Both the position numbers and the translations under genes were made by a program. A DNA stretch of 64,000 nt from Chloroflexota bacterium (GTDB taxonomy: Bacteria; Chloroflexota; Dehalococcoidia; Lucifugimonadales; UBA3495), in the NCBI GenBank assembly GCA_027623675.1, contig JAQBVF010000009.1:1-64000 (forward strand), given 5' to 3'. Under the pieces are notes generated by a model. The model did not search any database. It saw only the letters and a list, made by a program, of their open reading frames with translations, and was not told where the DNA came from. Positions 4,710 through 64,000 of the stretch are shown piece by piece. Numbering within the stretch: the stretch's first letter is position 1; every line of letters starts with the position of its first letter.

Positions 4710-5852
4710 ATGAACGGAAGTATCAGGCAACGATCCAAGGGAACATGGCAGCTCAGGTACGACGCGCCACCAGACGGCACTGGCAAGCGTCGGTTTGTCA
4801 GTGAGACGGTTAAGGGCAACAAGAAAGATGCGGAACGGGTACTTAGGGAACGACTAGCTGCGGTAGAGACGGGCAACTACGTGACCAGAGATAAGGAAAC
4901 CGTGGCGGAATATCTTAACCATTGGTTGGGAACTTATGCTGCCAGCAACACGACCCTACGAACGCAGCAAGGTTATCTAGGTAATATCCGACGCTACATC
5001 GAGCCCTCCATAGGTAGCATTGAGCTACAAAAACTGAAGCCTGATCAAATTCAGAAATTGTACGTCGGATTGCTAGAAAAGGGCCTCGGCAATCGCACTG
5101 TGCTCCACGTACACAGGGTATTACGTAAGGCGTTATCGGATGGGGTCAAGTGGGGCGTTTTAGTCCGCAATGTGGCTGACGCCGCAACTCCGCCCCGGCC
5201 CCAAAACAAAGAAATGGAAATGTGGGACACCGACACCATCAGCGAGTTCATCGCTATTACCGAAGGGCATAGGTTCCGAGATTTCTACCTGTTAGCACTC
5301 CTGACTGGTCTAAGGCGATCTGAACTGTGTGGGGTGAAATGGGAGAGTGTGGACCTGGTCGCTGGCCGCCTAAGCGTTGTCAGGACTCTACAAAGGATCG
5401 ACGGAAAGGGACTTGTAGAAGGGCAACCCAAAACACGTAAATCCCGGCGCTCTATCGCCCTAAGTCCCCAGGCCGTAGAAGTTCTTCACGCCGTCCGTGG
5501 CCAGCAGATCGAGTACCAACTGGCCGCTGGACCACTGTGGCGGAACACCGGATACGTCCTGACCCAAGCTGATGGAAGCCCTCTTAATCCAATCACTGTT
5601 ACCCAAAAATTCACCGCCATTGTCCGGGAGTCTAATCTCCCGCATCTGACCCTTCATGGTCTACGCCATGCCCATGCTACATTGATGCTCACTGCCGGGG
5701 TGCATCCGAAAGTGGTGTCAGAGCGTTTGGGACACTCCAACATTGCGATAACGATGGATACTTACTCGCATGTGATGCCTGGACTTCAGGAAGAGGCAGT
5801 TTTGACACTGGATGCACAGATCAACATCAACCCGGTGTCAGGCATAAAGTAG
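4710..5852 (+). CDS. int: Tyrosine recombinase/integrase
   Basis: TGLRRSEL, PKT, LHGLRHAHAT, RLGHSNIAITMDTYSH catalytic motifs; N-terminal arm-binding region. Confidence 0.95.
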   Translation: MNGSIRQRSKGTWQLRYDAPPDGTGKRRFVSETVKGNKKDAERVLRERLAAVETGNYVTRDKETVAEYLNHWLGTYAASNTTLRTQQGYLGNIRRYIEPSIGSIELQKLKPDQIQKLYVGLLEKGLGNRTVLHVHRVLRKALSDGVKWGVLVRNVADAATPPRPQNKEMEMWDTDTISEFIAITEGHRFRDFYLLALLTGLRRSELCGVKWESVDLVAGRLSVVRTLQRIDGKGLVEGQPKTRKSRRSIALSPQAVEVLHAVRGQQIEYQLAAGPLWRNTGYVLTQADGSPLNPITVTQKFTAIVRESNLPHLTLHGLRHAHATLMLTAGVHPKVVSERLGHSNIAITMDTYSHVMPGLQEEAVLTLDAQININPVSGIK

Positions 5853-49946: not shown

Positions 49947-51320
49947 GTGAACTTCGCCCCGTTCCGCGCCCGGATCGCCAATTGGCTGCCGTTCTATTAC
50001 GGCTGGGTGATTCTGTCCACTGTCTCGGTGCCCAGTTTCGGAGCAAGGCCGGTCATGGCCGTGGCCACCCTCTCCGTGTTCGTGGTGCCCATGACCAACG
50101 AGTTCGGTTGGTCGCGGGGGCAATTCTCCGGCGCGGTCAGCCTGGGAGCCCTCTTCGGACTCATCGTCTCGCCCTACGCCGGCAAGCTGGTGGACCGTTA
50201 CGGCTCCGGGGTGATGCTCTCGGCTTCGTCGGCAGTGGTTGGGTGCTGCGCCATCGGACTCTCCCTGATCTCGCCGATCTGGTCTTTCTACGCGCTCTAC
50301 GTCCCCGGACGGGCGGTGTTCTCCAGTCCCCTTGAGTTGGGCACGTCCACGGCGGTCAGCAACTGGTTCATCCGCCGCAGACCCATGGCGCTGGCCTACA
50401 TGGGCATCATCCAGGGTGTGGGTCTCACCATCTTTCCCCTGATCGCCCAGGTGCTGATCAACGGCTGGGGCTGGCGCACGGCCTGGTTGGCGCTGGGGAT
50501 CTTCACCATCAGCAGTGGCATCGCCCCGGCTCTGGTGCTCATGGCGCGCCGTCCCGAGGACATGGGACTGGAGGCCGACCCCGATAAGAAAAACTCGAGT
50601 TCGGCCATCGAAACGCCGGTCTCTCAAGTACAGCCAGCCCAGGATGATTCCATTCCAGCCGGATCTGGCCAAGACCAGGCCAGCCATCGAACCGAATCCG
50701 ACTACACGGTCAAGCAGGCTCTGGCGACCAGGGCATTCTGGATATTGGCGCTCTTCTCGGTGTTCGGCTTCGTGGTGCAGGCCGGAGTCAGCCTCCACCA
50801 GGTGCCCCACTACATCGAACAGGGCGTGCCCACTCATCTGGCTGCATTGACCGCCAGTGTGTTTGCCTTTGGCCAGGTGCCGGGAGGGCTGTTTTGGTCG
50901 ACGCTGGCCCGGCGTGTCCCACTGCGGATATTGCTGGCGGCCTCGGGAGGCGCAATGACCGTGGGGGCCATTGGCACGGGTTTCAGCAGCACGTTATCCG
51001 CCGGACTGCCCATGGGGTTCTTGCTGGGTTTCGGGGTCGGCGGCATCCATCTGCTGCTGCGGCTGACCTGGGCCGACTACTACGGGCGGCTGCACCTGGG
51101 GGCCATTCGAGGGCTGACTCTCCCCGCCCAGATCGGCGGGCAGGCCATGGGACCCATCTTCGCCGGGTTCATGTTCGACGCCACCGGCGGCTATCAGGCG
51201 CCCTTCCTCGTGTTCGGCATCATCGTGGCCATCGGCGGGGTGATGGTGCTCGCGGCCACGCCACCCGGACCGCTCCCCCGGACCAGTGTTTCGGAACAGC
51301 CGGCGGTCAAGCCTGCTTAA
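49947..51320 (+). CDS. MFS transporter
   Basis: FYYGW, GKLVDRYG, WFIRRR, ADYYGR..LGAIRG. Confidence 0.9.
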   Translation: MNFAPFRARIANWLPFYYGWVILSTVSVPSFGARPVMAVATLSVFVVPMTNEFGWSRGQFSGAVSLGALFGLIVSPYAGKLVDRYGSGVMLSASSAVVGCCAIGLSLISPIWSFYALYVPGRAVFSSPLELGTSTAVSNWFIRRRPMALAYMGIIQGVGLTIFPLIAQVLINGWGWRTAWLALGIFTISSGIAPALVLMARRPEDMGLEADPDKKNSSSAIETPVSQVQPAQDDSIPAGSGQDQASHRTESDYTVKQALATRAFWILALFSVFGFVVQAGVSLHQVPHYIEQGVPTHLAALTASVFAFGQVPGGLFWSTLARRVPLRILLAASGGAMTVGAIGTGFSSTLSAGLPMGFLLGFGVGGIHLLLRLTWADYYGRLHLGAIRGLTLPAQIGGQAMGPIFAGFMFDATGGYQAPFLVFGIIVAIGGVMVLAATPPGPLPRTSVSEQPAVKPA

Positions 51321-51958
51321 GGCCAGCTAGCCCGGGCCTTACGGCTGATCACGGCGAACATGGGGTCGTCGGGCGGGCTGGTCTTGGCGTTCAGGAAATT
51401 GCCCTGGATGTCCTCGAAGTTCTCCGCCGCCTCCATGTAGGTGCCCACCAGGTCGACCCGGCCCCGGTCGGTGGAGTTCCGCCAGATCAGCACGGCCTTG
51501 GTGGCGAACATGCGGTTGGAAAAACTGACGATGAAGACCCCGCCCGGCCTCAAAATACGGTTGACCTGGGCGAATGTCTCGATGGGCTTGGTCAGGTATT
51601 GGGCGGAGACGGTAATCACCACGGCATCAAATGACTCGTCGTCAAAGGGCAGTATGGGATTATTGTTCACGTTATGAACAACGATGCTGTCCAGGTCCGG
51701 ATTGTCCATCATCTCGACCTGGTTCAGGCCCAAGCCAACCAGGCGTTTCTTGGGGTGGCCGGCGGGCCAATGGGAGCGCCAACTGCTCATCAGGTCCAAC
51801 ACTTCCGAGTTCTCCGGTATCTCGTCCCGGAAGCACTGGGACACAGCTGCGATGGCCCCCGGGTCGATATGCACCACCAGGCGGGGAGACTGGTAGAAGA
51901 CGCCGTCATCCTCCTCGTCCTCGCGCTGGAAAAGTTCGGGTGTCAGTCTATTCTCCAT
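51317..51958 (-). CDS. SAM-dependent methyltransferase (type 11)
   Basis: DDGVFYQSPRLVVHID, VLDLMSSWRSH, SFSNRMFATKA. Confidence 0.9.
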   Translation of the reverse strand: MENRLTPELFQREDEEDDGVFYQSPRLVVHIDPGAIAAVSQCFRDEIPENSEVLDLMSSWRSHWPAGHPKKRLVGLGLNQVEMMDNPDLDSIVVHNVNNNPILPFDDESFDAVVITVSAQYLTKPIETFAQVNRILRPGGVFIVSFSNRMFATKAVLIWRNSTDRGRVDLVGTYMEAAENFEDIQGNFLNAKTSPPDDPMFAVISRKARASWP

Positions 51959-52183
51959 GATTGAATCTCCGTATCTCTCACGGACCGCATGAAGCGGCCC
52001 TTTGGTTGCGGTTCAAACGTGCCCCCTGGCACCGGCGGATTGTACCACGGCCTTGGCCGGCTCCAGATGGCTGGTGGCGCAGGCGGTCAGGGATTACAAT
52101 CCCGGCACTCTCCGTCCAAGTGGAGCGATTGAAGTGGAGCATCGGACCGGAGCACGAATCAGATTAACAAAGAGGTGATTGCC

Positions 52184-52561
52184 ATGGCTGAAGAGACCAA
52201 AGAGGAGATGCTGAAAAGGATCTCGGAGAACCGGGGTTACTCCCTGGAGATGCACCGGATCATGGCTGAGGTGGACCTGGATTGGGTCACCGCCTACAAC
52301 CAGTTCATCGACGCGACCTACACGGGGCAACGGCTATTGGACCGGAAGACCAAGGAATTGTTGCAGGTGGCGGTGGAAGCCGCTCTGAAAGCCGACGTTG
52401 ACCAGATACAGGCCCACATCCACGTGGCGATACAAGAGGGCGCCTCACCCATGGAAGTGCTGGAAGCCATGCAATGCGTGATCATGCCCATGGGCGCCCT
52501 GGCCTACCGCCGCGGCCTGCAAGCCTGGTCCGCGGAGACCGGCATCGGCCTGGACAAGTAG
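52184..52561 (+). CDS. Carboxymuconolactone decarboxylase family
   Basis: LDRKTKELL..AV, HIHVAIQEGAS..EVLEA. Confidence 0.85.
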   Translation: MAEETKEEMLKRISENRGYSLEMHRIMAEVDLDWVTAYNQFIDATYTGQRLLDRKTKELLQVAVEAALKADVDQIQAHIHVAIQEGASPMEVLEAMQCVIMPMGALAYRRGLQAWSAETGIGLDK

Positions 52562-52593
52562 GACATTACTCAGGTTGAGACCACGTTAACCAG

Positions 52594-52627
52594 TAAGGGG
52601 CATCCCGAAACTATCGGGATGCCCTTA
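52594..52627. terminator. Inverted repeat terminator
   Basis: gggcatcccga-aacta-tcgggatgccc. Confidence 0.6.
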
Positions 52628-52702
52628 ATTTCTCCGAGGAAAGACCAGCGGAGACACACTCCCGGCGAGGTGCCTTGCCCCAAAACTATCATTCAGACGA
52701 GT

Positions 52703-52773
52703 GAGTCATTCCGCGGAAGGAAAGAATCTGCCAATCATCAACTTGGCAGACCCTTCACTACGTTCAGGGTGAC
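52703..52773. repeat. Short degenerate member of the GTCATTC..GAATCT / AGA..TGAC palindromic repeat family
   Basis: gtcattccgcggaaggaaagaatctgccaa...ttggcagacccttcactacgttcagggtgac. Confidence 0.55.
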
Positions 52774-52857
52774 ATCTAAGCAGCACACTTCATGCCCTAA
52801 ACCGTTGCTGTTAGGGCAACGCCCCCGGCGAAGCCGGACCAACCCCGGCCGTGCCGG

Positions 52858-53640
52858 TTATTTTTGCCAGTTGACCTTGTTGGTCAGCGTGCCGATGTCG
52901 TTGATGGAGATGGAGCAGACATCGCCGTCGACCATGTTCTCGGTGGCGCCGTCGGTGCCCATCCACAGCACATCGCCGGGCACCAAGGTCAGGTACTCGC
53001 TCATCTTGCTGATGAAGGTACGCACGCCGAAGATGGCCGTGGCCACATCGTACTCACCCACTATGCGGTCATTAATCTTGATCACCACGTGCAGGTCGTC
53101 GGGGTTCAGATCGGTGACGATCCAGGGGCCCATGGGCTTGAAGGTGTCGGTGTTCTTGGCCCGCCACATGGTGCGGTCGCCCCGCTGCCAGGTGCGCTCA
53201 CTCACGTCGTTGCCGATGCTGTAACCCAGCACGTAGTCCAGCGCCTGGGCTTCGGTGACGTTGCGGCAGGTCTTGCCGATGACCACCACCAGTTCGCCCT
53301 CATACTGGAGCATCTCAGTGGCGTCCTTGGGCACGATGATGTCATGGCCGTCGGGCACCAGGGCGTTGATGGCCCGGTAGCCCACATCAGCCTGCTTGGG
53401 CAGGACCGGCTCTTCACCGCGCATCTGGGCGGCCCAGGTCACGTGTTCCGGATAGTTGATGCCGGCGGCATAGAATGTGGGGGGAATAACCGGCACCTCC
53501 AGCTTCACCGCGTTCAATTTGTGCGACTTGCTGGTTTTCTTGTAGCTGTCGAAGGGGCTTCCTTCAACCGCGGTTACGGTGTCTCCCTCGATTATCCCGT
53601 AGGAGATGGGGCCACCGGTGGAGAATCTGCACCATTTCAT
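52858..53640 (-). CDS. Fumarylacetoacetate hydrolase family
   Basis: GINYPEH, YEGELVVVIGK, GNDVSERTWQ, AKNTDTFKPMGP. Confidence 0.93.
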   Translation of the reverse strand: MKWCRFSTGGPISYGIIEGDTVTAVEGSPFDSYKKTSKSHKLNAVKLEVPVIPPTFYAAGINYPEHVTWAAQMRGEEPVLPKQADVGYRAINALVPDGHDIIVPKDATEMLQYEGELVVVIGKTCRNVTEAQALDYVLGYSIGNDVSERTWQRGDRTMWRAKNTDTFKPMGPWIVTDLNPDDLHVVIKINDRIVGEYDVATAIFGVRTFISKMSEYLTLVPGDVLWMGTDGATENMVDGDVCSISINDIGTLTNKVNWQK

Positions 53641-53763
53641 ATCGTTCACCTCGTTTGTTGGCGATACCCAAGGCCGGTCCATCTCGCTGCCGGGCCGTGA
53701 GTCATGCAGGCCAATTTTACACCGCGCTCCGGCCCGGTCAAGCTGACGCCAACATCCTCTGGT

Positions 53764-53803
53764 TCACGGGTGTCTCACGGATGTCTCACGGATGTCTCAT
53801 GGA
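53764..53803. repeat. 11-bp tandem repeat TCACGGATGTC x3.5 in a divergent promoter region
   Basis: tcacgggtgtc tcacggatgtc tcacggatgtc tcatgga. Confidence 0.7.
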
Positions 53804-53896
53804 ACCCGCCGAAAATGGTAGAATCTAGCCCGCCAGACCTCAAATGCTCTGGGCGGCGGGGCCGGCAACGATACTAGAAACCAAGGTGGATGTGCC

Positions 53897-54667
53897 ATGC
53901 GACTGGAAGGAAAGACGGCCCTGATCACCGGCGCCAGCCGGAACATCGGCAAAGAGATTGCGTTGACCTTTGCCCGTGAGGGCGCCGACCTGGTTCTGAA
54001 CACCCGGAACAGCGAAGCCGAACTGGAAGAGGTGGCCAGCGAGTGCCGGGAATTGGGCGTGAAGACCCACACGGTGATCGCCAACGTCGCCGAATCGGCC
54101 AGCGTCACCAAGATGGTGGCAGATGGGATCCAGGCGTTGGGCAAGATCGACATCCTGGTCAATAACGTGGCCGTCCGCCCCCACAAACCCATCTTGGAGA
54201 TAACCGACGAAGAGTGGCACACCACGCTGGGAATCAACCTGCACGCCGCGTTCTACCTGTGCCGGGCAGTGCTGCCCGGCATGATGGAACGGCAGAGCGG
54301 CAGTATCATCGCCCTGGGCGGGCAGTCGGCCATCACCGGCCGCCCCGGAACCAGCATCGTGACCACCGCCAAGACCGGGGTGCTGGGCCTGATTCGCGCC
54401 GTTGCGGCTGAGATGGCACCCTACAACATCCGGGCCAACATGGTGAACCCCGGCTCCACCGACACCTCCCGGGGCAATCCCGAGTGGTATCCCGAGTTCC
54501 AAGCCGGCACCGACCGAGGTTCGTCGGAGCACCTGAAATCCATCCCCATGGGCCGTCAGGCGACCGTGCAAGACATCGCCAACGCCTGCCTGTTCTTCGC
54601 CTCGGACGAGTCGGGCTACATCACCGGGGACAGCGTGAACGTCATGGGCGGCCGCTACATCTTCTAG
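53897..54667 (+). CDS. SDR oxidoreductase
   Basis: TGASRNIG, DILVNN, VTTAK in place of YxxxK, NMVNPG. Confidence 0.9.
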   Translation: MRLEGKTALITGASRNIGKEIALTFAREGADLVLNTRNSEAELEEVASECRELGVKTHTVIANVAESASVTKMVADGIQALGKIDILVNNVAVRPHKPILEITDEEWHTTLGINLHAAFYLCRAVLPGMMERQSGSIIALGGQSAITGRPGTSIVTTAKTGVLGLIRAVAAEMAPYNIRANMVNPGSTDTSRGNPEWYPEFQAGTDRGSSEHLKSIPMGRQATVQDIANACLFFASDESGYITGDSVNVMGGRYIF

Positions 54668-54809
54668 CCAGGCTGAGCCTGGACCCGATTACCTCCGGAG
54701 CCCCATCTCGCTGCGCCGCACCGACAGAAGTCCCCCATTTCGTAAAGTGGGCTAGGGGGATTTTTCCCTGGTAGCGAAATGCCCCCTAGCGCGCCCACCA
54801 ACCCACTAC

Positions 54810-55373
54810 CTAGATGGGCAGCGGCAGCTCCGTCAGGTTGTCGGGAAGGCCCACATCGAAGGCGTTGATGTTGAAGGCCAAGGCCGAGTAGTACCCCATC
54901 AGGTTGGTCAGTTCCACCAAGCCCAGGACGCCGAACTGCGCCTTGGCCGCGTCGAACGTTGCCTGGCTGACCCTGTGAGTGCGGAAGAACTCCCGGCCGT
55001 AGTTGACCACCGCCGACTCCTGGTCCGAAAGCCCCGTCAGTTCCTTCTTGTCGCGGAGATTGTCGACCAACGCGTCGCTCACACCGGCCTTGCGGGCATT
55101 GGCCGAGTGGGCGTTCCAGATGAACTGGCAGTCCAACTCCCGGGCGGTCAGTATCATGGCAAGCTCCCGGACGTTGGCCGGCAGGGTGATCTCATCTCCC
55201 CGGAAGTAGGCCCGGTAGTGCTCGCCGCGGCTGGCCAACTCGGGGCCGTTCAGCATGATGGCCACGGGGCCGATGTCCGGCACCACGCCGCCGCGTGACT
55301 TCACCAATTCGTCAAAGGCGGCCAGTTGGTCTTGTGGCACGCTCTCTCTACTGACTATAGGTATTCTCGACAT
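54810..55373 (-). CDS. Carboxymuconolactone decarboxylase family
   Basis: RELAMILTARELDCQFIWNAH, GLVELTNLMGYY. Confidence 0.88.
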   Translation of the reverse strand: MSRIPIVSRESVPQDQLAAFDELVKSRGGVVPDIGPVAIMLNGPELASRGEHYRAYFRGDEITLPANVRELAMILTARELDCQFIWNAHSANARKAGVSDALVDNLRDKKELTGLSDQESAVVNYGREFFRTHRVSQATFDAAKAQFGVLGLVELTNLMGYYSALAFNINAFDVGLPDNLTELPLPI

Positions 55374-55494
55374 TTGATCCTCCCGATCTTCACATTCCTG
55401 ATACCCGCCAACGTCGGGCGGGCACCACATGATACAACAGCCCGCCGGCGTCCGGTGTGACAAGCGATCCGGAACTAAAGTAACCTTGTCCATT

Positions 55495-57012
55495 ATGTCT
55501 TCGACCGACCTGGACCATGCCGGCGGCACCTCCCTGACCCGCAGCCCAAACTACAAGTATTGGGTCTTTGGGGCCTTGGCCATCGGCACGTTCGCATCGG
55601 TGGTGGACCACGGCAGCGTCAACGTGGCCCTGCCGACCATCGCCACCAGATTCCAGACCGACCTGCCGACCATCCAATGGGTGGTCATAACCTACGCCCT
55701 CACCATCAGCGCGCTGCTGCTGCCCATGGGGCGTCTCTCGGACCTTATCGGCCGCCGTAAGGTGTACATCGCAGGAATGGCGGTGTTGGCCATCGGAGCG
55801 GCATTGGCCGGGCTGTCACCCAACCTGGAGATGCTGTTCCCGGCCCGGGTGCTGCAGGGCGTGGGCGCCGCCATGACCCAGGGCACGGGCATGGCCATCA
55901 TCACATCAGCATTCCCGCCCAACGAGAAAGGCCGGGCCATCGGACTGATCATGACCATGGTGGGGGTGGGCGCGGTTGCCGGTCCGGCCATCGGGGGGCT
56001 GGCCGTCGACGCCTTTGGCTGGCGCGCGGTGTTCTTCCTGACCATCCCCTTGGAGGTCATCGGCGTGGCCGTCACTCTGTGGGTGATGCGCGGCTGGGCG
56101 GACGTTCGGGAATCCGGGAGAGCCCGGTTCGACTGGTTGGGAGCCACACTGTCGGCGGGGATATTGGTGGCCTTGCTGATCACCATGACCACCGGCAACA
56201 AGACCGGCTGGTTTTCGCCGGTCATCCTGGCCGCCTTCGCCGGGTCCGCCGCCATGCTCGCCACCTTCATATGGTGGGAATTGCACACCACCGCCCCAAT
56301 GTTGGACCTGCGGCTATTCAAGGGCGTAACTTTCTCGCTGGGCGTGTCGGCGGCTTTCCTGACGTTCCTGGGGTCGTCGGCGGTCCTATTCCTGATGCCC
56401 TTCTATCTGCAGAACGTGTTGGGCTACAGCGCCAAGACCGCCGGCTTTGTCGTGGTGCCCGGAGCGTTATGCATGGCGGTGCTGGGGTCGGTCAGCGGGG
56501 TGCTCTCCGACCGGTTCGGGTGGCGTCCATTCACGGTGGGTGGCCTGGCGTCTTCGGCCACCGGACTTATCATCCTGTCGCGGGTCACCGAGACATCGCC
56601 GCTATGGATGGTGGTGCCGGCGCTGATGCTGATGAACAGCGGCATGGGAACCTTCTATTCGCCCAACTCCAGTTCGGTGATGAACTCGGTCAGTCCCGAC
56701 AAGTACGGCGTGGTGTCCGGGTTCTTGAACCTGGTGCGAAACGCCGCCAACGTCACCAGCATCGCCGTCGCCACCATCATCGTCACCGCCACCATGGGTT
56801 CATTGGGCTTCGAGCCAAGCTTGGAAGCGGTCCGGGGCGGCAGCGAGGGGGTTGGCCACGCATTTACCGTGGGACTCCGCTACGCCTTCTTGGTGATGAT
56901 GGGGATGGTTCTCTCAGCCATGACCATCTCCGCCCTGCAACGGGGACGCTCCGGAGAGGAGGCCGCTGACCCGGCGGCCGACGCCCTGGGAAGGTCCCAG
57001 GCCGACGATTAA
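55495..57012 (+). CDS. MFS DHA2 (EmrB/QacA-like) transporter
   Basis: VNVALPTI, GRLSDLIGRRK, RVLQGVG, GPAIGG, PMLDLRLF. Confidence 0.92.
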   Translation: MSSTDLDHAGGTSLTRSPNYKYWVFGALAIGTFASVVDHGSVNVALPTIATRFQTDLPTIQWVVITYALTISALLLPMGRLSDLIGRRKVYIAGMAVLAIGAALAGLSPNLEMLFPARVLQGVGAAMTQGTGMAIITSAFPPNEKGRAIGLIMTMVGVGAVAGPAIGGLAVDAFGWRAVFFLTIPLEVIGVAVTLWVMRGWADVRESGRARFDWLGATLSAGILVALLITMTTGNKTGWFSPVILAAFAGSAAMLATFIWWELHTTAPMLDLRLFKGVTFSLGVSAAFLTFLGSSAVLFLMPFYLQNVLGYSAKTAGFVVVPGALCMAVLGSVSGVLSDRFGWRPFTVGGLASSATGLIILSRVTETSPLWMVVPALMLMNSGMGTFYSPNSSSVMNSVSPDKYGVVSGFLNLVRNAANVTSIAVATIIVTATMGSLGFEPSLEAVRGGSEGVGHAFTVGLRYAFLVMMGMVLSAMTISALQRGRSGEEAADPAADALGRSQADD

Positions 57013-57028
57013 CCGGCTGACAGTCAGC

Positions 57029-57364
57029 CTATAGAGGACTTTGTCCCAGCAATCCCGCGAACCGCAGGCCCCACAAGACTCCAGCCAGTCCCGTGGACAG
57101 TATCAACGTGACGGTCGCCCGGTTCTTCCACGCCGACCCCCACCAGCTGCCATGAGACTGCGCCAGCCACCAGCCCCGCGCCAACATGAGCACGGTTAAA
57201 GCCAAGAAAGGCCAGGTCATCACCCGCAACGCGGGCGCCAAGGCCAACCCGGCCGACGTTCCCCCCAGAACACCGAGCAGGCCCGGGACCACTCATCACC
57301 AAGGAAGCGGCAACAGTCCACTGAGCAGGCTTACGAACGGCTTTTCCAACGCAAATAGTTTCAT
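57029..57364 (-). CDS. merT: MerT-like mercuric transporter with tandem TGA-TGA (putative Sec23-Sec24)
   Basis: MKLFALEKPFVSLLSGLLPLPW-TGA-TGA-VVPGLLGVLGG...RVMTWPFLALTVLMLARGWW; TGAs at 57298-57293; 3 TM segments; directly after merA. Confidence 0.75.
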
Positions 57365-57503
57365 TGTTTCCCCAACTCTCTCGTCAGATATCTGCCACGC
57401 ACTACGGCTGCTCCGGGTGAGTAAACTCAAGGGCAGCGGTGGAACGGCCAGTCAGATCAGATTTTCCCAAGGCCCGCTGTCTGAAACTCAAGCGCAGGGT
57501 CAC

Positions 57504-58940
57504 CTACTCGACGCAGCAACTCATCTGAGACACATCCCGCGTGAAGGCTTGCGCCGCTCGCTTTATACCCTCGCTCAGGGTCGGAAATACGTGGACGGTA
57601 TCGATTATGTCGTCGATGGTCAGGCTGAATTTCACCGCCATAGTGGCTTCGTGAATCAGGTCCGCGGCATGGGGCGCGACGATGTGAACGCCAAGCACCT
57701 TGGAGTTACTTGGATCGATGACCATCTTGAAAACGCCACGGTCATCCTTGGTGGCCTCTGCCTTTGGGACCGCGTCCATGTAGATGGTGCGGCAAGCGCA
57801 GGCTTTGGTCCTGCGCATCAGCTCCTCTTCAGTGATGCCAACCGACCCCACCTCAGGGTCCGTGAAAACGGCATGGGGCACTTCGTCATAGTTGATGCTC
57901 CTACGCGCGGAAGTCAGCGCATTGTCCGCGGCCAACGCCCCTTCTTTGGCCGCGACCGTCTCCAACGCCATCTTTCCGACACAGTCGCCGGCGGCGAAGA
58001 CGTCCGGGTTATCGGTCTGGTAATACTCGTCGACCTGGATGAAACCGTTTCCGTTGGCTTTCACACCGGCTTTCTCCAGCTGTAACGCGCCGGTATTGGC
58101 CTGGATGCCCGCGGCCAGCAGCAATTGGTCCGCCTCCAGGTCGGTTGCCGTTGTAACAAGACTTCGGTTCCGTTGGACCCCGCTGCCGCCCCGGACCGTG
58201 ACGATCTTCCTGCCGTTCCGTTCAGCCACCTTGTCCACCGTTACACCCACGTGAAACTCGATCCCCTCGTTCTCCAGGTTGCGTTGTAGTTCGGCGGCTA
58301 CCTCCGGCTCCTCACGGGGCAGAATTCGGTCCATGGCCTCCACCACGGTTACCTTCGTGCCAAAGCGAGCGAACATCTGGGCGAATTCCAATCCCAAGGG
58401 CCCGCCGCCAATAACGATCATTGATTCAGGCAGTTCTTGAAGCGCGAGCGCCGAGACGTTGTTCAGCCAGCGAACTTGGTCGATGCCGTCGATCGGCAGA
58501 ACCCTAGTGGAAGACCCGGTGGCGATGATTATCTTCTCCGCTTCGTAGGTCTGACCGCCGGCTTCCACGGCATTCGGCCCAACGAAACTGGCCACAGCCT
58601 CTAGCAGGGTAACCGTATCCAGGCCATCCAGAACGTTGCGGTAATTCCTCTGCCGCAAAGCGCCCACAAGCTCATCCTTTTCTTGGATGGCGGTCTTAAA
58701 ATCGAAATCGGGGCGGCGCCCATTGGAGATAGAGTTGAAATTTGAGTGGGAGCTGTAAAAAAGGTCATTGCCCACGCTGAGCAGGTGTTTACTGGGAACA
58801 CAGCCAACGTTGACGCAGGTGCCGCCCAGGGGCAGGCCGCTGTTGATCATGAGCGCGCTCTTGCCAAGATCCGCCGCTTTGGTCGCCGCTGCGAAGGCCG
58901 CCGCTCCGCCTCCGATGATTATCAGGTCAAGCTTATCCAT
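57504..58940 (-). CDS. merA: Mercuric reductase lacking the N-terminal NmerA domain
   Basis: [13 protein letters not shown] redox centre; C-terminal vicinal pair [15 protein letters not shown]. Confidence 0.92.
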
Positions 58941-59147
58941 GGTCGCCTCTCAGTTATTGTTGTTTTAATCAGGTTAGTTTGGCTTTTGACGAGGGGACAT
59001 TTAGCTCAAGGATGAACACATCCTAAGTGCGCTATTGAAGACTCGAGGCATACCCTCTCTCCACGAGTTGCTTCAGCAATGTTTCGGCGTTACTGGACCG
59101 AAACTTTCCCCCACTGTCTGGATTCCGATAAACGATCGAGGCCTTGA

Positions 59148-59672
59148 TCACAGCGTCCGTTCAATCTCGGTCTTCAAAACGTCGTACGACGTAGCGCCGC
59201 CGTCACGGTAGGAGACGAGTCCATTTCGATCCAGGATTATGGTCGTGCCCAGGCTCGTCACTCCGAACTCCTTGACCAACCGGCCGCCGGTATCGTTTGC
59301 CCAGGTCACATCTTCAGCCCCCTTGCTATGCCAGTAATCGCGCCATTCCTCCACGGAGACCCAGGCGGCGGTATTGATGGCCAGAACCTGGACTCCCTGG
59401 GACTGAAATTCCCGTTGCGCCCGCCCTAAGGCTGGAGCCTCCAGCCCGCAGGTGGGTCAACCGGGAAACGAGAAGTAAAGGACCACGGTTTTACCCAGGT
59501 AGTCGTCCATCGCCAAGGAGACTGCTGGAACAGCTCCGCCGGGTCCGTCGGCGGCCGGAGGGCCGGAATCGTTCGCCCCTGAGACGGCCGTGTTGCCTCC
59601 GCAGCCGGCCAGCGCGGCGGTCAATGCCAACATGATCAGAAAAGCGAGCGCCCTGGGGTAGGTTGATCTCAA
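59148..59672 (-). CDS. TlpA-like thioredoxin-fold lipoprotein selenoprotein, UxxC
   Basis: LAGC lipobox; GKTVVLYFSFPG-TGA(59459-59457)-PTCGLEAPAL continues in frame to FGVTSLGTTIILDRNG. Confidence 0.88.
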
Positions 59673-59687
59673 ATCAGCTCCGGAGGG

Positions 59688-59852
59688 TCAACTTGGAATA
59701 TGGTGGTCAAGCGAAGCGGTCGATCCTGGTACCGGGTCTGGTGTTTCGGGTGGCCCGCTTGGGGACCGGCGGAACACCATGGCGCCCAGCCCGATCATGG
59801 CCGGGATCAAGATACAGCAGATAACCGGAAATGCGGCCAGGAAAGCTCCCAC
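59688..59852 (-). CDS. Small single-TM peptide with vicinal Cys-Cys; could start at 59885 through a TGA
   Basis: VGAFLAAFPVICCILIPAMIGLGAMVFRR...; fills the operon gap. Confidence 0.5.
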   Translation of the reverse strand: MGAFLAAFPVICCILIPAMIGLGAMVFRRSPSGPPETPDPVPGSTASLDHHIPS

Positions 59853-59940
59853 GATTACCTGCTTCGCCTTTCAGAAGTAGTCCATGAAACCGACCGCGGC
59901 TTTTGGCTCCGGTAGAACGCCAATTTCGGTGGTGCGGCCA

Positions 59941-60177
59941 CTATTCAGCCAGCAATTTTTCGAAGCGGGCGCGGTCAAATCCCACCACGACCTCGCCGTC
60001 GATCACGGTAACCGGGGTGGTCAACACACCCAGCTTCATCAACTCGTCCATTGCGGACTTGTCGTTCATGACATCCCGTTCCACAAAAGGAACATCCCGT
60101 TGCAAAAGATAATCTTTTGCCATCTCACAGAAGTGTCAACCGTCGGGTTGGGTGTAAACGAATATCTCGCGTGTCAT
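59941..60177 (-). CDS. Glutaredoxin/NrdH-like selenoprotein, UxxC
   Basis: AAGGAG RBS; MTREIFVYTQPDG-TGA(60138-60136)-HFCEMAKDYL...TTPVTVIDGEVVVGFD. Confidence 0.9.
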
Positions 60178-60227
60178 GAACTCTCCTTACTAAACTGATG
60201 GCTGGCTAAACACCTGAGCGTGGCGTA

Positions 60228-60671
60228 CTACCGAGGACGTTTGACGGCTGGGGCGGTCCGACGGTGTGCGACGTCGCTCTGTTCGATTATCGAGCAGATC
60301 TCCCCTCCCTCGGTCTTGCAGTCGACCAGGCCGATCGAGTGCTCTCTTAGCTCGACCAGGTCGCCTTTGAGGGCTTTCAGGTCTTCTATTGATGCCTCAA
60401 CATCCGATATCTTTTGGTCCAACAGGTCGCGGACGTGGATGCACGTCGCTTCTTTCGCGTCATGCAATCGAAAGATTCCCCGAATCTCATTCAAAGAGAA
60501 CCCCAATCGCTTCGCTTTAAGGATGAATTCCAGCCTACTCAACGACTCCCCATCGTACGAACGGTAGCCCCCAGTTGTCCTTGGGGGCTCCGGCATCAGG
60601 CCTTCGGCCTCATAGAACCTGATGGTCTTGGTGTTCGTGCCGGTGGCGCGGGCCAATTCGCCAATCTTCAC
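60228..60671 (-). CDS. merR: MerR-family heavy-metal regulator
   Basis: IGELA..TIRFYE..GL...RT.GGYRSY; three Cys (EATC, VDC, EICSII) spaced like the MerR Hg site. Confidence 0.9.
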   Translation of the reverse strand: MKIGELARATGTNTKTIRFYEAEGLMPEPPRTTGGYRSYDGESLSRLEFILKAKRLGFSLNEIRGIFRLHDAKEATCIHVRDLLDQKISDVEASIEDLKALKGDLVELREHSIGLVDCKTEGGEICSIIEQSDVAHRRTAPAVKRPR

Positions 60672-60700
60672 TGATCGCTCCTGGATAGCTGCTGAATCCG

Positions 60701-60732
60701 ATTCTAAACCTTCCAGTATACTGGAATGTCAA
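60701..60732 (-). promoter_or_regulatory. MerR-type promoter/operator
   Basis: TTGACA-20 bp-TAGAAT with perfect 16-bp palindrome TTCCAGTATACTGGAA (60711-60726) in the spacer. Confidence 0.9.
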
Positions 60733-61036
60733 GCAGCATTATAAGCTATACCGGTACGGGGTTATTTGTTGTAAACAATGTCCGGGTCATCAGATTTGCC
60801 AGGCCCAACAGTTAGACCTCCGGCTGATTGTCCCTTTGATGATTGATGCACTCGGCGGCCGTCCTCGCCGGCATGGTCTGGCCTCCGTTGACCGAGTGCG
60901 CGATTCCGGGTGGTCGACTCCGGCGGTGGGATCCAACCAAGGGCTGCCACAACCTCGTTGCCCCGGACCGCCAAAGGCGTTAACATTCGCCTGCTGAGGC
61001 TTGGAACTCGCGGCAAGCGATAAAAGGAGAATCAAA

Positions 61037-61354
61037 ATGTACGTGGTAATCGTGCCCATACAGATCATGGAAGGACACCGGGACGAGTTCCTGGAAGCAC
61101 TGATGGTAGACGCCAAAGGGGCCAACAACGACGAGCCGGGGTGCCTGCGGTTCGACGCGGTCCAAGACGCCGAAGACGACCACCGCATCTGGCTGTATGA
61201 GGTATACAAGGACGAAGACGCCTTCAAGGCCCACCTGGCGGCCCCCCATTTCGCCGTGTTCAAAGAGGCCGCCGACAAATGGCGGGTAGAAGGCATCCAG
61301 GGTTCCGCGCGGGGCAGCAAGAACCTTTGGCCCACCGACGCCGACTGGCGGTAG
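61037..61354 (+). CDS. ABM-domain (putative quinol monooxygenase/LsrG-like) protein
   Basis: DEPGCLRFD, LYEVYKDEDAFKAHLAAPHF. Confidence 0.88.
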   Translation: MYVVIVPIQIMEGHRDEFLEALMVDAKGANNDEPGCLRFDAVQDAEDDHRIWLYEVYKDEDAFKAHLAAPHFAVFKEAADKWRVEGIQGSARGSKNLWPTDADWR

Positions 61355-61410
61355 CGGTACGGGAGTGATGTCCAGCAGCATCAAGATTGAGACGAATCTG
61401 GAGGATAGCC

Positions 61411-61806
61411 ATGGCTAAAACCATCCTTCAAAGCTCTAGGGTGTCCGCGCCCGCCGGGATAATGTCCCAGGGGGTGGAGGTCCAAGCAGGTAAGATGGTG
61501 TTTGTGTCGGGTCAGGTAGCACGAGACTTGGACGGCAGTGTTGTGGGCGTGGGCGATGTCGCGATGCAGACCAGAAAGGTGCTGCAGAACATGCAGGCGG
61601 TGCTGGCCGAGTCCGGGGCCACCATGGACGACGTGGTGAAGGTCACCGTGTTCGTCACGAATCTGGAAAAGCATTTCGCCGATATCCACAAGGTGCGCGG
61701 CGAGTTTTTCAAGAGCGACTACCCCGCCAGCACCATGGTGGAGGTGAAATCACTGGTCCACGAGGACATGCTGATCGAGATCGAGGCCATCGCGGTGATG
61801 CATTAA
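61411..61806 (+). CDS. RidA/YjgF family protein
   Basis: VFVSGQV, YPASTMVEV..L, LIEIEAIA. Confidence 0.9.
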   Translation: MAKTILQSSRVSAPAGIMSQGVEVQAGKMVFVSGQVARDLDGSVVGVGDVAMQTRKVLQNMQAVLAESGATMDDVVKVTVFVTNLEKHFADIHKVRGEFFKSDYPASTMVEVKSLVHEDMLIEIEAIAVMH

Positions 61807-61849
61807 GAGCCGCCGGCCAACAGCTAGCAACCCTTTAGGTAATTAACCT

Positions 61850-62119
61850 GAGTCATCCCGGAGTTTCATCGCGGTCGGCACGCTTCCGGGCAGATGCCGT
61901 CATTTCAACTTCCGTAGAAATGACGCTCGTGCCTAGCAACCACACTCGGTACCTGTCATTCTGATCCTTCCGCAGAGGGAGAAGAATCTCTTTGCTTGAC
62001 TTCAAAGTTGCTAGCGTTCCGCCGGACCAGCAGTTGGTCTACCATCAGCAACGAGATTCCTCGCATCGCTCGAAATGACCAACACGGCGGCATTCACCCG
62101 GCCAACTCCGGAATGACTC
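61850..62119. repeat. MITE/REP-like palindromic element, copy 2
   Basis: gagtcatcccggagtt...aactccggaatgactc; colinear with 16590-16948 but only one 24-bp unit. Confidence 0.85.
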
Positions 62120-62474
62120 ATGTTTGTTGGCGTGCGAGAACAGGTTCACTGGGCGATGCCATTGGTCCCGCGGCGTCTCGTGGAAGCACTCGATGCCGTG
62201 ACCGCCGGTATTGGGTTTACTGGGGTCCGGGGTTCTTTGCCGTACCTAGATGTTGTTCGAGTCCATCGCCCGAACGACCGGGCAGCCACCCGAATAACCC
62301 GACTGCCGAATACCCCAGGTCTCGAGGGCAAGTCGCCCCATCGTCGAATCAGGGCCGCCAGCCTGGGTCGAAATGATACATGGTATTACGATCGCGGTCC
62401 ATGTCTCCGGTCAGGCTCGGGTGATACAATGAACCAGCCGGAGCGATAGACTCGGCACCCCCCCTTTCCTCGAT

Positions 62475-62547
62475 GGGCCGTTAGCTCAGTTGGCAGAGCA
62501 CCGGACTTTTAATCCGGGTGTCGTGGGTTCGACCCCCACACGGCCCA
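62475..62547 (+). tRNA. tRNA-Lys(TTT), CCA not encoded
   Basis: gggccgt acceptor, tagctcagttggcagagc D-arm, ccgga-ctTTTaa-tccgg, ggttcgacccc T-arm. Confidence 0.96.
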
Positions 62548-62782
62548 CTTCTACTTCCTCGGTTTTGACAGACACCTAGCCACTGCTTGGTCTGGAGCAT
62601 CAGGCCATACGGCTCGGCGCCCATTGGCTCCCTCCTCGGTGTCGTCAACGGTTCTTTGATAAACGTTGGATCACCCGGTCGCCACGGCGACTCATCCATT
62701 GCAAAGACATCACGATAGGCAGTAGTCATCCGTCCGGGGAAAGACGGCGAGTCAATCTGGCCGGGTAGTATCATATCGAGAC

Positions 62783-63253
62783 ATGATTCTGATAGTGAAG
62801 TTACTATTTGTCGCCCTCGCAGTAAGCCTGCTTGCCGGTTGCGCGACATCCAGAACCATCTCCGGCGCTCTCGATTCCGAAGCAACGAACAACATTGAAG
62901 TAGTCAGGATTATCGACGGCGATACTCTAGATGTCTTGATCTCCGGCGTCCCGCATAGGGTCCGGCTATTTGGGGTCGACACACCTGAGTGGGGAGAGCC
63001 GTGTTACCAGGAAGCAAGCGACCGCCTGCGGCAACTGGCCGGTGACGTAGCGCGTATCGAGGCTGGGCCGAGGGCTGAAGATACCTACGGCAGACTGTTG
63101 TTCTATCTTTATACTCTAGACGGAGAAAGCATTGACGCGACGCTGATCTCAGAAGGCTTGGCTAAAGCCCGGACCGGCGACGGCCAGTACCGAGACCTTC
63201 TGGTCAACCTGGAGGAGGAAGCTAGGACGCAGGGAGTTGGTTGCCTGTGGTGA
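62783..63253 (+). CDS. Thermonuclease (SNase) family lipoprotein
   Basis: LAGC lipobox, RIIDGDT, VRLFGVDTPE, DTYGRLL, G.GCLW. Confidence 0.9.
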   Translation: MILIVKLLFVALAVSLLAGCATSRTISGALDSEATNNIEVVRIIDGDTLDVLISGVPHRVRLFGVDTPEWGEPCYQEASDRLRQLAGDVARIEAGPRAEDTYGRLLFYLYTLDGESIDATLISEGLAKARTGDGQYRDLLVNLEEEARTQGVGCLW

Positions 63254-63278
63254 TTTCGGCGGCCCGGAACGAATTCTG

Positions 63279-63319
63279 ATACGAAAGCCCCCGATGTGAT
63301 ATCGGGGGCTTTCGTATTT
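63279..63319. terminator. Bidirectional terminator hairpin
   Basis: atacgaaagcccccgat...atcgggggctttcgtat between convergent genes. Confidence 0.8.
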
Positions 63320-63361
63320 CTGCTGGAGATCTGGCCCACTGCCCGGCGACGGGGTGCCCCG

Positions 63362-64000
63362 CTACGACTCGGTGCCGGACAGCATGTACATCTTGCCTCC
63401 GGAGGCGACGGCGACCCTGCCGGTATTGGCGCCGACCGCCAGGCTGGTGATTGGACCGCCGAGATATACCTCCCACAGCTTCAGACCCTGGCTGTCGAAT
63501 AAGAACACCCTCCCATCGGAAGACCCGGCCGCCATGCGAGTGCCGGCGGGGTTAATAGCCACGGCCGTTATCGACGTACCCGCGACATCCACCTGGTTGA
63601 TCAGTAAGCCTTGATTGTTCAGCAGGTAGATCGTGCCGTTCGCCGTTCCAGCTGCCACTCTGGCCCCCGCGTCGGCGACCGCAACATCGTTGACCGGGCC
63701 GTTGACGGCGAGCGAGAAGATTGCGGCGCCGTCGTTGTTCAGCAAAAAAACCTGGCCCGCTTGGGAGCCGACCGCCGAGCGCGTGCCGTCGCCCGAAACA
63801 GCGGAGCCGTTAACCTGCCGGACTTCACCCGCCGGCGTCTCAAATATCCAGCGCTGCAGACCATCGGCGTTCAGAGAATGTGAATTCTGGTTCGCTGTCC
63901 CAACTGAAATCCGGCCCCCGTCGCCGGAGATGCCAACGTCGCTGACCGGGCCGCTCACCGCGACCGACCATAATTTGAACGGTCGTTCGTCCAGGAGATA
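63362..64000 (-). CDS. WD40/PQQ-like beta-propeller protein, 5'-partial
   Basis: Repeats V..VAIS.DG..AVGS..G.V.L; frame open to the window end. Confidence 0.85.
   Translation of the reverse strand, partial: YLLDERPFKLWSVAVSGPVSDVGISGDGGRISVGTANQNSHSLNADGLQRWIFETPAGEVRQVNGSAVSGDGTRSAVGSQAGQVFLLNNDGAAIFSLAVNGPVNDVAVADAGARVAAGTANGTIYLLNNQGLLINQVDVAGTSITAVAINPAGTRMAAGSSDGRVFLFDSQGLKLWEVYLGGPITSLAVGANTGRVAVASGGKMYMLSGTES

Follow-up and report, generated by a model that had tools for sequence, protein, structure and literature searches.

Introduction

The closest described counterpart of the gene cluster examined here is the mer operon of the Staphylococcus aureus plasmid pI258, with the order merR-tlpA-ccdA-merT-merA-merB (NC_013319). 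The cluster lies on the minus strand of a 64,000-nucleotide stretch of a Chloroflexota genome of the class Dehalococcoidia (GCA_027623675.1, contig JAQBVF010000009.1, positions 1 to 64,000; hereafter the window). Read from 60732 down to 57029, it comprises a MerR-type promoter, merR, a glutaredoxin-like gene (grx), a gene for a Cys-Cys peptide, tlpA, merA, and a gene with two adjacent in-frame TGA codons, here called the UU gene after the one-letter code for selenocysteine (Sec). It resembles pI258 in that merR comes first and is co-oriented with the rest (the two regulators are 39% identical over 110 amino acids), in a lipoprotein TlpA homologous over its length, and in the combination of a MerT-type membrane protein and MerA with no MerP, so that merR, tlpA, a MerT-type gene and merA stand in one unit. 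It differs in its four predicted Sec codons, in the extra Sec glutaredoxin and Cys-Cys peptide, in the absence of ccdA and merB from the unit, and in a MerA without the NmerA domain; moreover, a direct profile comparison of the UU protein with pI258 MerT is not significant.

Mercuric transport proteins with a single Sec have been catalogued (C/SxxU, PF02411; Table 1 of PMC13188914), a CU MerT family is given in bioRxiv 10.1101/2022.07.06.499078, and further single-Sec cases appear in PMC2398784 and PMC1976440. Like these proteins, including the NCBIfam MerT/CopZ fusion NF045683, the UU protein would carry Sec at a metal-binding position; unlike it, they have one Sec and a different motif or domain layout, and Table 1 of PMC13188914 holds no UU motif among its 119 families. 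The multi-selenoprotein operons SAO and Tso (PMC13188914; bioRxiv 10.1101/2022.07.06.499078) also have at least three selenoprotein genes per unit, and SAO is tied to heavy-metal chemistry, but both consist of other genes and have no MerR-MerA. The SAO authors favour a role in metabolism and call Sec-dependent mercury resistance plausible, having met no example. Two consecutive Sec residues are described in algal PDI_e (GUGUU; PMC7539508), a eukaryotic thioredoxin-fold protein, whereas the window gene encodes a bacterial membrane protein with its putative recoding signals inside the coding region. UxxU hydrogenases have been proposed to use one Sec insertion sequence (SECIS) (PMC13582414). No multi-Sec mer operon, bacterial UU protein or double SECIS for adjacent UGAs was found in the literature searched, with supplements and BSepDB outside its scope.

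A conserved gene with tandem UGA codons

The UU gene and the two hairpins within it are as follows.

57029 to 57364, minus strand: UU gene, encoding a putative MerT-clan membrane protein of 111 amino acids; TGA-TGA at 57293-57298 (Sec23-Sec24)
57242 to 57283, minus strand: hairpin 1 of the UU gene, starting 9 nucleotides past the second UGA, with its apical loop mostly 25-31 nucleotides downstream
57221 to 57237, minus strand: hairpin 2 of the UU gene, a 7-9-base-pair stem with a GUU triloop 62 nucleotides past the second UGA

Four in-frame TGAs occur in three genes of the cluster, one in grx, one in tlpA and the tandem pair in the UU gene. A preliminary description made from the letters of the window had placed them at positions where homologues have a thiol (UHFC in the glutaredoxin, UPTC in TlpA, and UU), and this placement is borne out, with conservation in relatives. 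The Sec machinery that it named as a check is present: selA, selB and selD exceed their model cut-offs in the window genome, selD has an in-frame TGA of its own, and a single tRNA-Sec has a UCA anticodon, G73 and a long variable arm. It is the only UCA tRNA at default stringency; a relaxed scan gave numerous low-score matches, which were taken as noise. Since TGA terminates 156 of 682 long open reading frames (ORFs), it is the normal stop elsewhere in this genome. SelB exceeds its cut-off in 55 of 61 related genomes and in 16 of the 20 genomes in which the UU protein was matched, the four misses being genomes that are 78-86% complete.

In loci collected from GTDB, the TGA-TGA is kept in 39/39. 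Of the two search patterns, one was placed away from the UU site and one called for Cys codons; TGA was thus not selected for in this count, although here and in every comparative count below the sequences are kin and not independent, and the counts are inflated accordingly. All but one of the loci (38/39) are titled Chloroflexota, Dehalococcoidia or SAR202. The TGAs are not peculiar to this assembly, and low ratios of nonsynonymous to synonymous substitution rates (dN/dS), given below, indicate purifying selection.

Profile-search homologues of the UU protein are distant and full-length, and they read P-W-C-C where the window protein, which contains no Cys at all, reads W-U23-U24. Cys-Cys stands at the UU position in 110 of 114 distant database homologues, a TGA/Cys alignment of the kind that the preliminary description had named as a check; the seed profile carried C for U, and some bias to Cys-Cys matches is to be expected in this number. 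Conversely, a profile of the Cys homologues finds the window UU protein at E 2e-19. One homologue with P-W-C-W is probably a Cys-Sec form called under another genetic code. For the single TGAs, grx has the codon in 6/7 matching genomes, the seventh being a distant match, tlpA has it in 7/7 copies neighbouring the UU gene, and the best three tlpA matches among 301 class genomes all carry it.

A non-Sec meaning of these codons would make them true stops, in decayed genes or between a short peptide and an 87-amino-acid protein, or would have them read as Trp or Cys. Databases do call the 87-amino-acid piece, decay is common in the genus, the codon after UGA-UGA is the start codon GTG in 23/39 UU loci, and a UGA-to-Cys tRNA (tRNA-ReC) is described for some UxxU genomes (PMC13582414). 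Yet GTG is found in only those 23 loci, the overlapping alternative frame is closed in 18/39, and purifying selection acts on the codons that precede the UGAs (dN/dS 0.05-0.32), which together argues against stop-and-restart. The 39/39 conservation at Cys-Cys-equivalent sites, the ordinary use of TGA as a stop elsewhere, the G73 and long variable arm of the sole UCA tRNA, and the TGA within selD all speak against the other versions too, and we regard a non-Sec meaning as very improbable. It is, on these comparisons, very likely that the four UGAs are conserved, Cys-equivalent Sec codons in a Sec-using genome.

Gene callers cut the UU family short at the UGAs: most of the 64 database matches to the UU protein are pieces of 83-88 amino acids that start past the double TGA, in line with the fragmentation foreseen in the preliminary description.

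Two hairpins behind the tandem UGAs

Bacterial Sec insertion is usually pictured with one UGA and one hairpin just downstream. The mRNA of the UU gene is predicted to form two. Hairpin 1 has 96.1% of cells paired across 36 sequences, compared with at most 62.8% in slid controls, and its loop lies at the canonical SECIS distance. In hairpin 2, both sides of one pair have changed in 11 of the 36 sequences, a value as high as which was reached in 0/500 shuffles, and the structure is seen in 29/38 UU loci, where synonymous codon choice would lead one to expect it in 1.0. The Leu codon in its loop is TTG in 38/38, whereas TTG fills 79/434 Leu positions elsewhere in these genes, and its Pro codon covaries with an Arg/Gln change (CCC-CGG 22, CCT-CAG 11, other 5). 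The protein motif encoded at hairpin 2 is found in 0/114 Cys homologues, and in Cys-Cys loci no hairpin recurs at one position in more than 2/35. That hairpin 2 is an RNA structure under selection is well supported by these sequence comparisons. A terminator was rejected as an explanation, there being no U run after the stem and no flag from the terminator scan, and so was a DNA palindrome, since the mRNA strand has G-U pairs, which favour an RNA structure.

SECIS-like hairpins are also predicted behind the two single UGAs.

60102 to 60120, minus strand: SECIS-like hairpin of grx, 8-base-pair stem, 3-nucleotide loop
59429 to 59447, minus strand: SECIS-like hairpin of tlpA, 8-base-pair stem, G-first triloop 17 nucleotides past the UGA

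The tlpA hairpin is identical in kind in 9/9 copies folded. The grx loop (60110-60112) starts with T in the window and with G in 7/7 relatives; an Asp codon replaces Glu, and the stem is intact. In the SECIS model given in PMC13188914, a G stands at the first or second loop position and the loop lies 16-37 nucleotides past the UGA. The tlpA hairpin and hairpin 1 of the UU gene (39/40, partly forced by Gly codons) agree with this model, whereas hairpin 2 lies outside its distance range and the grx loop has no G in the window genome. In that genome, 12/15 hand-picked single-Sec candidates have a 6-9-base-pair stem and a G-first triloop 17-27 nucleotides past the UGA, a pattern that is partly circular because most candidates came from a hairpin-filtered scan; three candidates outside the printed list of that scan also fit.

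With hairpin 1 folded, an effective distance of ~20 nucleotides is left to hairpin 2, which fits this genomic pattern, and hairpin 2 is a candidate for a second SECIS serving the tandem UGAs, to which SelB would bind. Hairpin 1 would then serve as the SECIS at normal distance, and its folding would bring hairpin 2 to its ~20-nucleotide position, where hairpin 2 would hold a second SelB complex, so that both UGAs are read. The full proposal is that two in-frame SECIS decode the back-to-back UGAs, hairpin 1 looping out ~42 nucleotides to bring the SelB-loaded GUU hairpin to the ribosome, and that the resulting Sec-Sec membrane site for selenium-based Hg capture is widespread and unannotated in Dehalococcoidia. 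We put it forward tentatively, with rather more doubt than confidence.

The window genome holds at least 13 further selenoprotein candidates (contigs C5, C10, C12, C13, C17, C20, C35, C36, C39, C40 and C43), named by eye from their motifs. Six are of a UGSC type with a G-first triloop exactly 19 nucleotides past the UGA.

The UU protein as a remote relative of MerT

The structure model of the UU protein has a short N-terminal helix followed by three long helices (predicted local distance difference test score, pLDDT, 69.5), the first of which begins at the Sec pair. The preliminary description had called the protein MerT. None of the curated family models reaches it: there is no Pfam match, and it fails the MerT cut-offs of PF02411, NF033560 and NF010314. 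All of 14 UU members match the MerTP fusion model, weakly (best E 7.8e-4), and the MerT/CopZ fusion model NF045683 gives a best E of 0.63 against the UU set.

The Cys homologues provide the link. NCBIfam merT_RC607 (NF033560) is matched by 87 of 113 (best E 3.4e-9), although far under its cut-off (37 vs 130 bits for the first member), and the five families matched most often are all MerT or MerF types (merT_RC607, then MerTP, MerF, MerT/CopZ and MerT). Pfam assigns MerT to 8 and MerC to 4 of the 113, and among the protein-atlas neighbours of one Cys homologue PF02411 is present in 14% of members. Neither sequence searches of the PDB nor two fold searches returned a Mer transporter; the latter gave only generic helical bundles (best Z 7.7), with a query model of pLDDT 69.5, and this null result does not exclude a Mer-transporter fold. 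Neither the UU protein nor one Cys homologue gave a match when plasmids were searched.

MerT has a second Cys pair at the cytoplasmic side, and the UU protein, with 0 Cys, has none. Like RC607-type MerT (NF033560) and the MerT-MerF-MerC clan (PF02411), it is small, helical and membrane-bound, and its first membrane helix bears a vicinal pair, here joined to detectable MerT homology; it differs in having Sec-Sec for Cys-Cys, in the missing second pair and in a score far below cut-off. The UU protein thus appears to belong to the MerT clan by descent, as a remote relative of RC607-type MerT and not a member by score. The name MerT stands as remote homology seen through the Cys homologues; as membership of a curated family it does not.

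Operon, promoter and encoded proteins

The remaining features of the minus-strand unit are listed below.

60701 to 60732, minus strand: MerR-family promoter/operator with a TTGACA -35 box, a perfect 16-base-pair dyad, a 20-nucleotide spacer and a -10 box
60228 to 60671, minus strand: merR, MerR-family regulator (Pfam MerR match) with Cys77, Cys118 and Cys126
59941 to 60177, minus strand: grx, glutaredoxin-like putative selenoprotein, U14-H-F-C17; TGA codon 14 at 60136-60138
59688 to 59852, minus strand: Cys-Cys peptide of 54 amino acids, a single-helix membrane peptide by hydropathy
59148 to 59672, minus strand: tlpA, TlpA-like lipoprotein, U72-P-T-C75; TGA codon 72 at 59457-59459
57504 to 58940, minus strand: merA, mercuric reductase without NmerA, with a C-terminal Cys-Cys

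The gene order and promoter layout agree with the single unit under a MerR-type operator of the preliminary description. Related merR genes have the same layout upstream in 11/12 cases; a promoter scan for 16-18-nucleotide spacers did not pick up the promoter at 60701-60732. The window MerR has the three Cys and the long-spacer dyad of Hg-sensing MerR, with all three Cys kept in 9/11 relatives (Cys118 is absent in one, and one is truncated), but their spacing (77/118/126) differs from that of pI258 MerR (Cys79/114/123). The protein is under the cut-offs of the MerR, CadR/PbrR, ZntR and CueR models, scoring 104 against 150.85 bits on TIGR02051 and 118 against 151 on CadR/PbrR.

MerA exceeds the TIGR02053 cut-off (537.5 vs 454.45 bits) with a match from residue 4. 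It starts at the FAD motif, has both the redox-active Cys pair and the C-terminal Cys-Cys, and finds mercuric reductases as its best PDB matches, so the absence of NmerA noted previously is upheld. The absence of merP is upheld too, no HMA/MerP match being found among the seven window ORFs scanned. Single-sequence family scans gave no family match for the Cys-Cys peptide.

Two replacements proposed in the preliminary description fare less well. An exported Sec lipoprotein had been suggested in place of MerP. The window TlpA aligns over its full length, lipobox and CxxC included, to S. aureus pI258 TlpA (probability 96.6%, E 6e-10); judged by this alignment it corresponds to a protein already known from mer operons, here in Sec form, and it need not replace MerP. 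A Sec glutaredoxin had been suggested in place of NmerA. NmerA-less merA without a Sec grx is common (loci L051, L078, L084, L085, L089 and L095), so grx is not needed for that purpose, and grx, itself under purifying selection (dN/dS 0.04-0.14), persists without merA in genomes G004, G005 and G011.

Between tlpA and merA, a 39-amino-acid ORF (59032-59151, minus strand) overlaps the tlpA stop; it has no family match, was not found in 20 related loci, and is probably spurious. Upstream of the operon, 20 codons from the 5' end of hpaB survive at 60812-60874 (minus strand), identical at 12/20 to the intact gene of L063; relatives have a full hpaB between the operon and ABM/RidA genes, which is deleted in the window. 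A tRNA-Lys(TTT) lies at 62475-62548 (plus strand), 1.7 kb from the promoter.

Genomic neighbourhood and function

With moderate confidence and from sequence, we favour an operon of the monoderm pI258/RC607-like type that would capture Hg(II), bring it into the cell and reduce it, with the metal-contacting thiols of three proteins recoded as Sec. A MerR with three Cys, a true MerA and a distant relative of MerT stand together in the unit, and merE-like genes, which flank 3/39 UU loci, are counted in its favour. Once MerR has bound Hg(II), it would switch on the long-spacer promoter. At the surface, Hg(II) would be caught or handed on by the UxxC protein TlpA, which would face outward, and by the Cys-Cys peptide. 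The Sec-Sec pair, where the first membrane helix begins, would then take the metal as Se-Hg-Se, and from there it would reach MerA at its C-terminal Cys pair, perhaps by way of the glutaredoxin with its UxxC, and be reduced to Hg(0).

The genes found no farther than 3 kb from the 39 UU loci were merR (11), merA (7), tlpA (7), the Cys-Cys peptide (7), GDCCVxC (6), grx (5), ArsR (4), HMA (4), merE-like (3) and CsoR with CopA (3). At least one such neighbour is present at 21/39 loci, some contigs being short. The synteny with merA that the preliminary description had named as a check is partial: merA does adjoin the UU gene in 7/39 loci, but it is not fixed, and the picture of a fixed mercury operon has to be given up. 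In the same genus, the arrangement merR-grx-CC-tlpA-UU occupies the same chromosomal site in G004, G005 and G011 (the UU copy of G005 is split), and no MerA over cut-off was found in these genomes, which are 78-92% complete. Among them, dN/dS is 0.07-0.14 for grx, 0.08-0.19 for tlpA and 0.11-0.27 for the UU gene. In an unrooted tree, five merA-less orthologues form the sister group of the window UU gene; with unrooted trees and no single-clade test, loss of merA once in the sister clade and gain here are not separable. In UU loci, merA is optional.

Several observations weigh against the mercury operon. Only 7/39 UU loci have merA nearby, one of them split, merA is near 1/42 Cys-Cys loci (many of those loci are short), and 3/39 UU loci sit with CsoR and CopA instead. 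The UU gene is intact in nine of the 15 merA-less UU genomes, and its dN/dS in the sister clade, which has no merA, indicates purifying selection, even though Hg import without a reductase should harm the cell. The regulator reaches the cut-off of no metal-specific model, and the UU protein is without the second Cys pair of MerT. The lost loop G of the window grx hairpin points to less efficient recoding or to a sequence error; against synonymous shuffles, the hairpin regions of the three window genes show no significant gain in stability (z -0.2 to -0.9), the evidence for the hairpins resting on comparison across relatives, and the kinship of those relatives bears on all the comparative counts. 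To pass from selenolate to thiolate, Hg has to move uphill; this step and the persistence of merA-less copies are the weak points of a mercury relay. Dehalococcoidia are among the most selenoprotein-rich genomes (PMC13326102), so the Cys-to-Sec swaps may reflect a habit of the lineage and not adaptation to mercury.

Some of these points would suit a general capture of soft metals (Hg, Cu, Ag, Cd), in which the UU protein binds or sequesters metal at the membrane, merA and CopA are add-ons of particular lineages, and no Hg relay to MerA is necessary. The purifying selection on merA-less operons and the loci with CsoR and CopA, GDCCVxC (6/39) or ArsR fit such a role, as do the Cys-Cys homologue loci, which have MerR-family genes at 18/42 together with HMA proteins, CsoR-type repressors and P1B ATPases and only rarely merA (127/165 neighbouring ORFs were scanned). 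The Se-Hg bond may also be too tight for release. Against it, the merA-adjacent copies are scattered over the UU tree, and window-type merA, present in 5/61 genomes, always occurs with an intact UU gene (adjacent in four); the UU gene is thus in 5/5 merA genomes vs 15/56 others, and all six broken UU copies are in merA-less genomes. We consider general soft-metal capture unlikely, though deserving more weight than the remaining alternatives.

In pI258, TlpA is paired with CcdA, and this pairing suggests a redox relay in which the UU protein stands in for CcdA, taking electrons from the UxxC glutaredoxin in the cytoplasm and giving them to the UxxC TlpA on the outer face, so that surface thiols stay reduced under metal stress while MerA removes Hg. 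No ccdA-like gene was found in the 39 UU loci or in the window at 50000-64000, and the Sec-TlpA loci L139 and L140 carry one, with no UU match in their genomes (77% and 82% complete). This complementary pattern is limited to those two loci, however; TlpA is absent at 32/39 UU loci, a ccdA-like homologue on contig C42 of the window genome could serve in trans, and the UU protein appears to descend from the MerT clan and not from CcdA. A relay of this kind seems to us quite improbable, and the Hg(II) capture, import and reduction operon remains the favoured explanation.

Other features were observed at related loci. In L058, at ~4730-5750 (plus strand), a thioredoxin-like ORF upstream of the UU gene has an extra in-frame TGA (P-T-U-P-V-C), and the cluster also holds Sec-TlpA, merE-like and GDCCVxC genes. 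In L051 (4370-4440, plus strand), the 3' end of merA recurs as a short duplicate directly past the UU gene. Two MerR loci, L082 (5274-5876) and L089 (5341-5955, both plus strand), encode a Met-rich lipoprotein of ~200 amino acids directly upstream of the UU gene. In 9/39 loci (L062, L069, L070, L072, L086-L088, L092 and L059), a hydrophobic ORF of 76-81 amino acids that belongs to no NCBIfam family is found no more than 3 kb from the UU gene. In L096-L137, metagenome contigs mostly without merA, the Cys-Cys homologues occur in a recurring module with a MerR-family or CsoR-type regulator, HMA, an NHL-repeat protein and a MetA-pathway barrel.

Implications

What is new here is the presence of two conserved hairpins in the mRNA of the tandem-Sec gene, at a locus that is real, conserved and under-annotated; tandem Sec combined with two hairpins is more striking than the operon as a mercury relay. 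The UGA-UGA gene with its two hairpins offers a ready reporter for SelB reloading between adjacent codons, a step that matters for making multi-Sec proteins in bacteria. The operon is a concrete case of selenium-dependent mercury-handling genes, and mercury-gene surveys of Dehalococcoidia show hypothetical fragments in their place, because gene callers cut such genes at the UGAs. Should soft-metal capture prove to be the true role and the Sec-Sec site trap its metal, the UU protein would be a membrane sink and not an importer.

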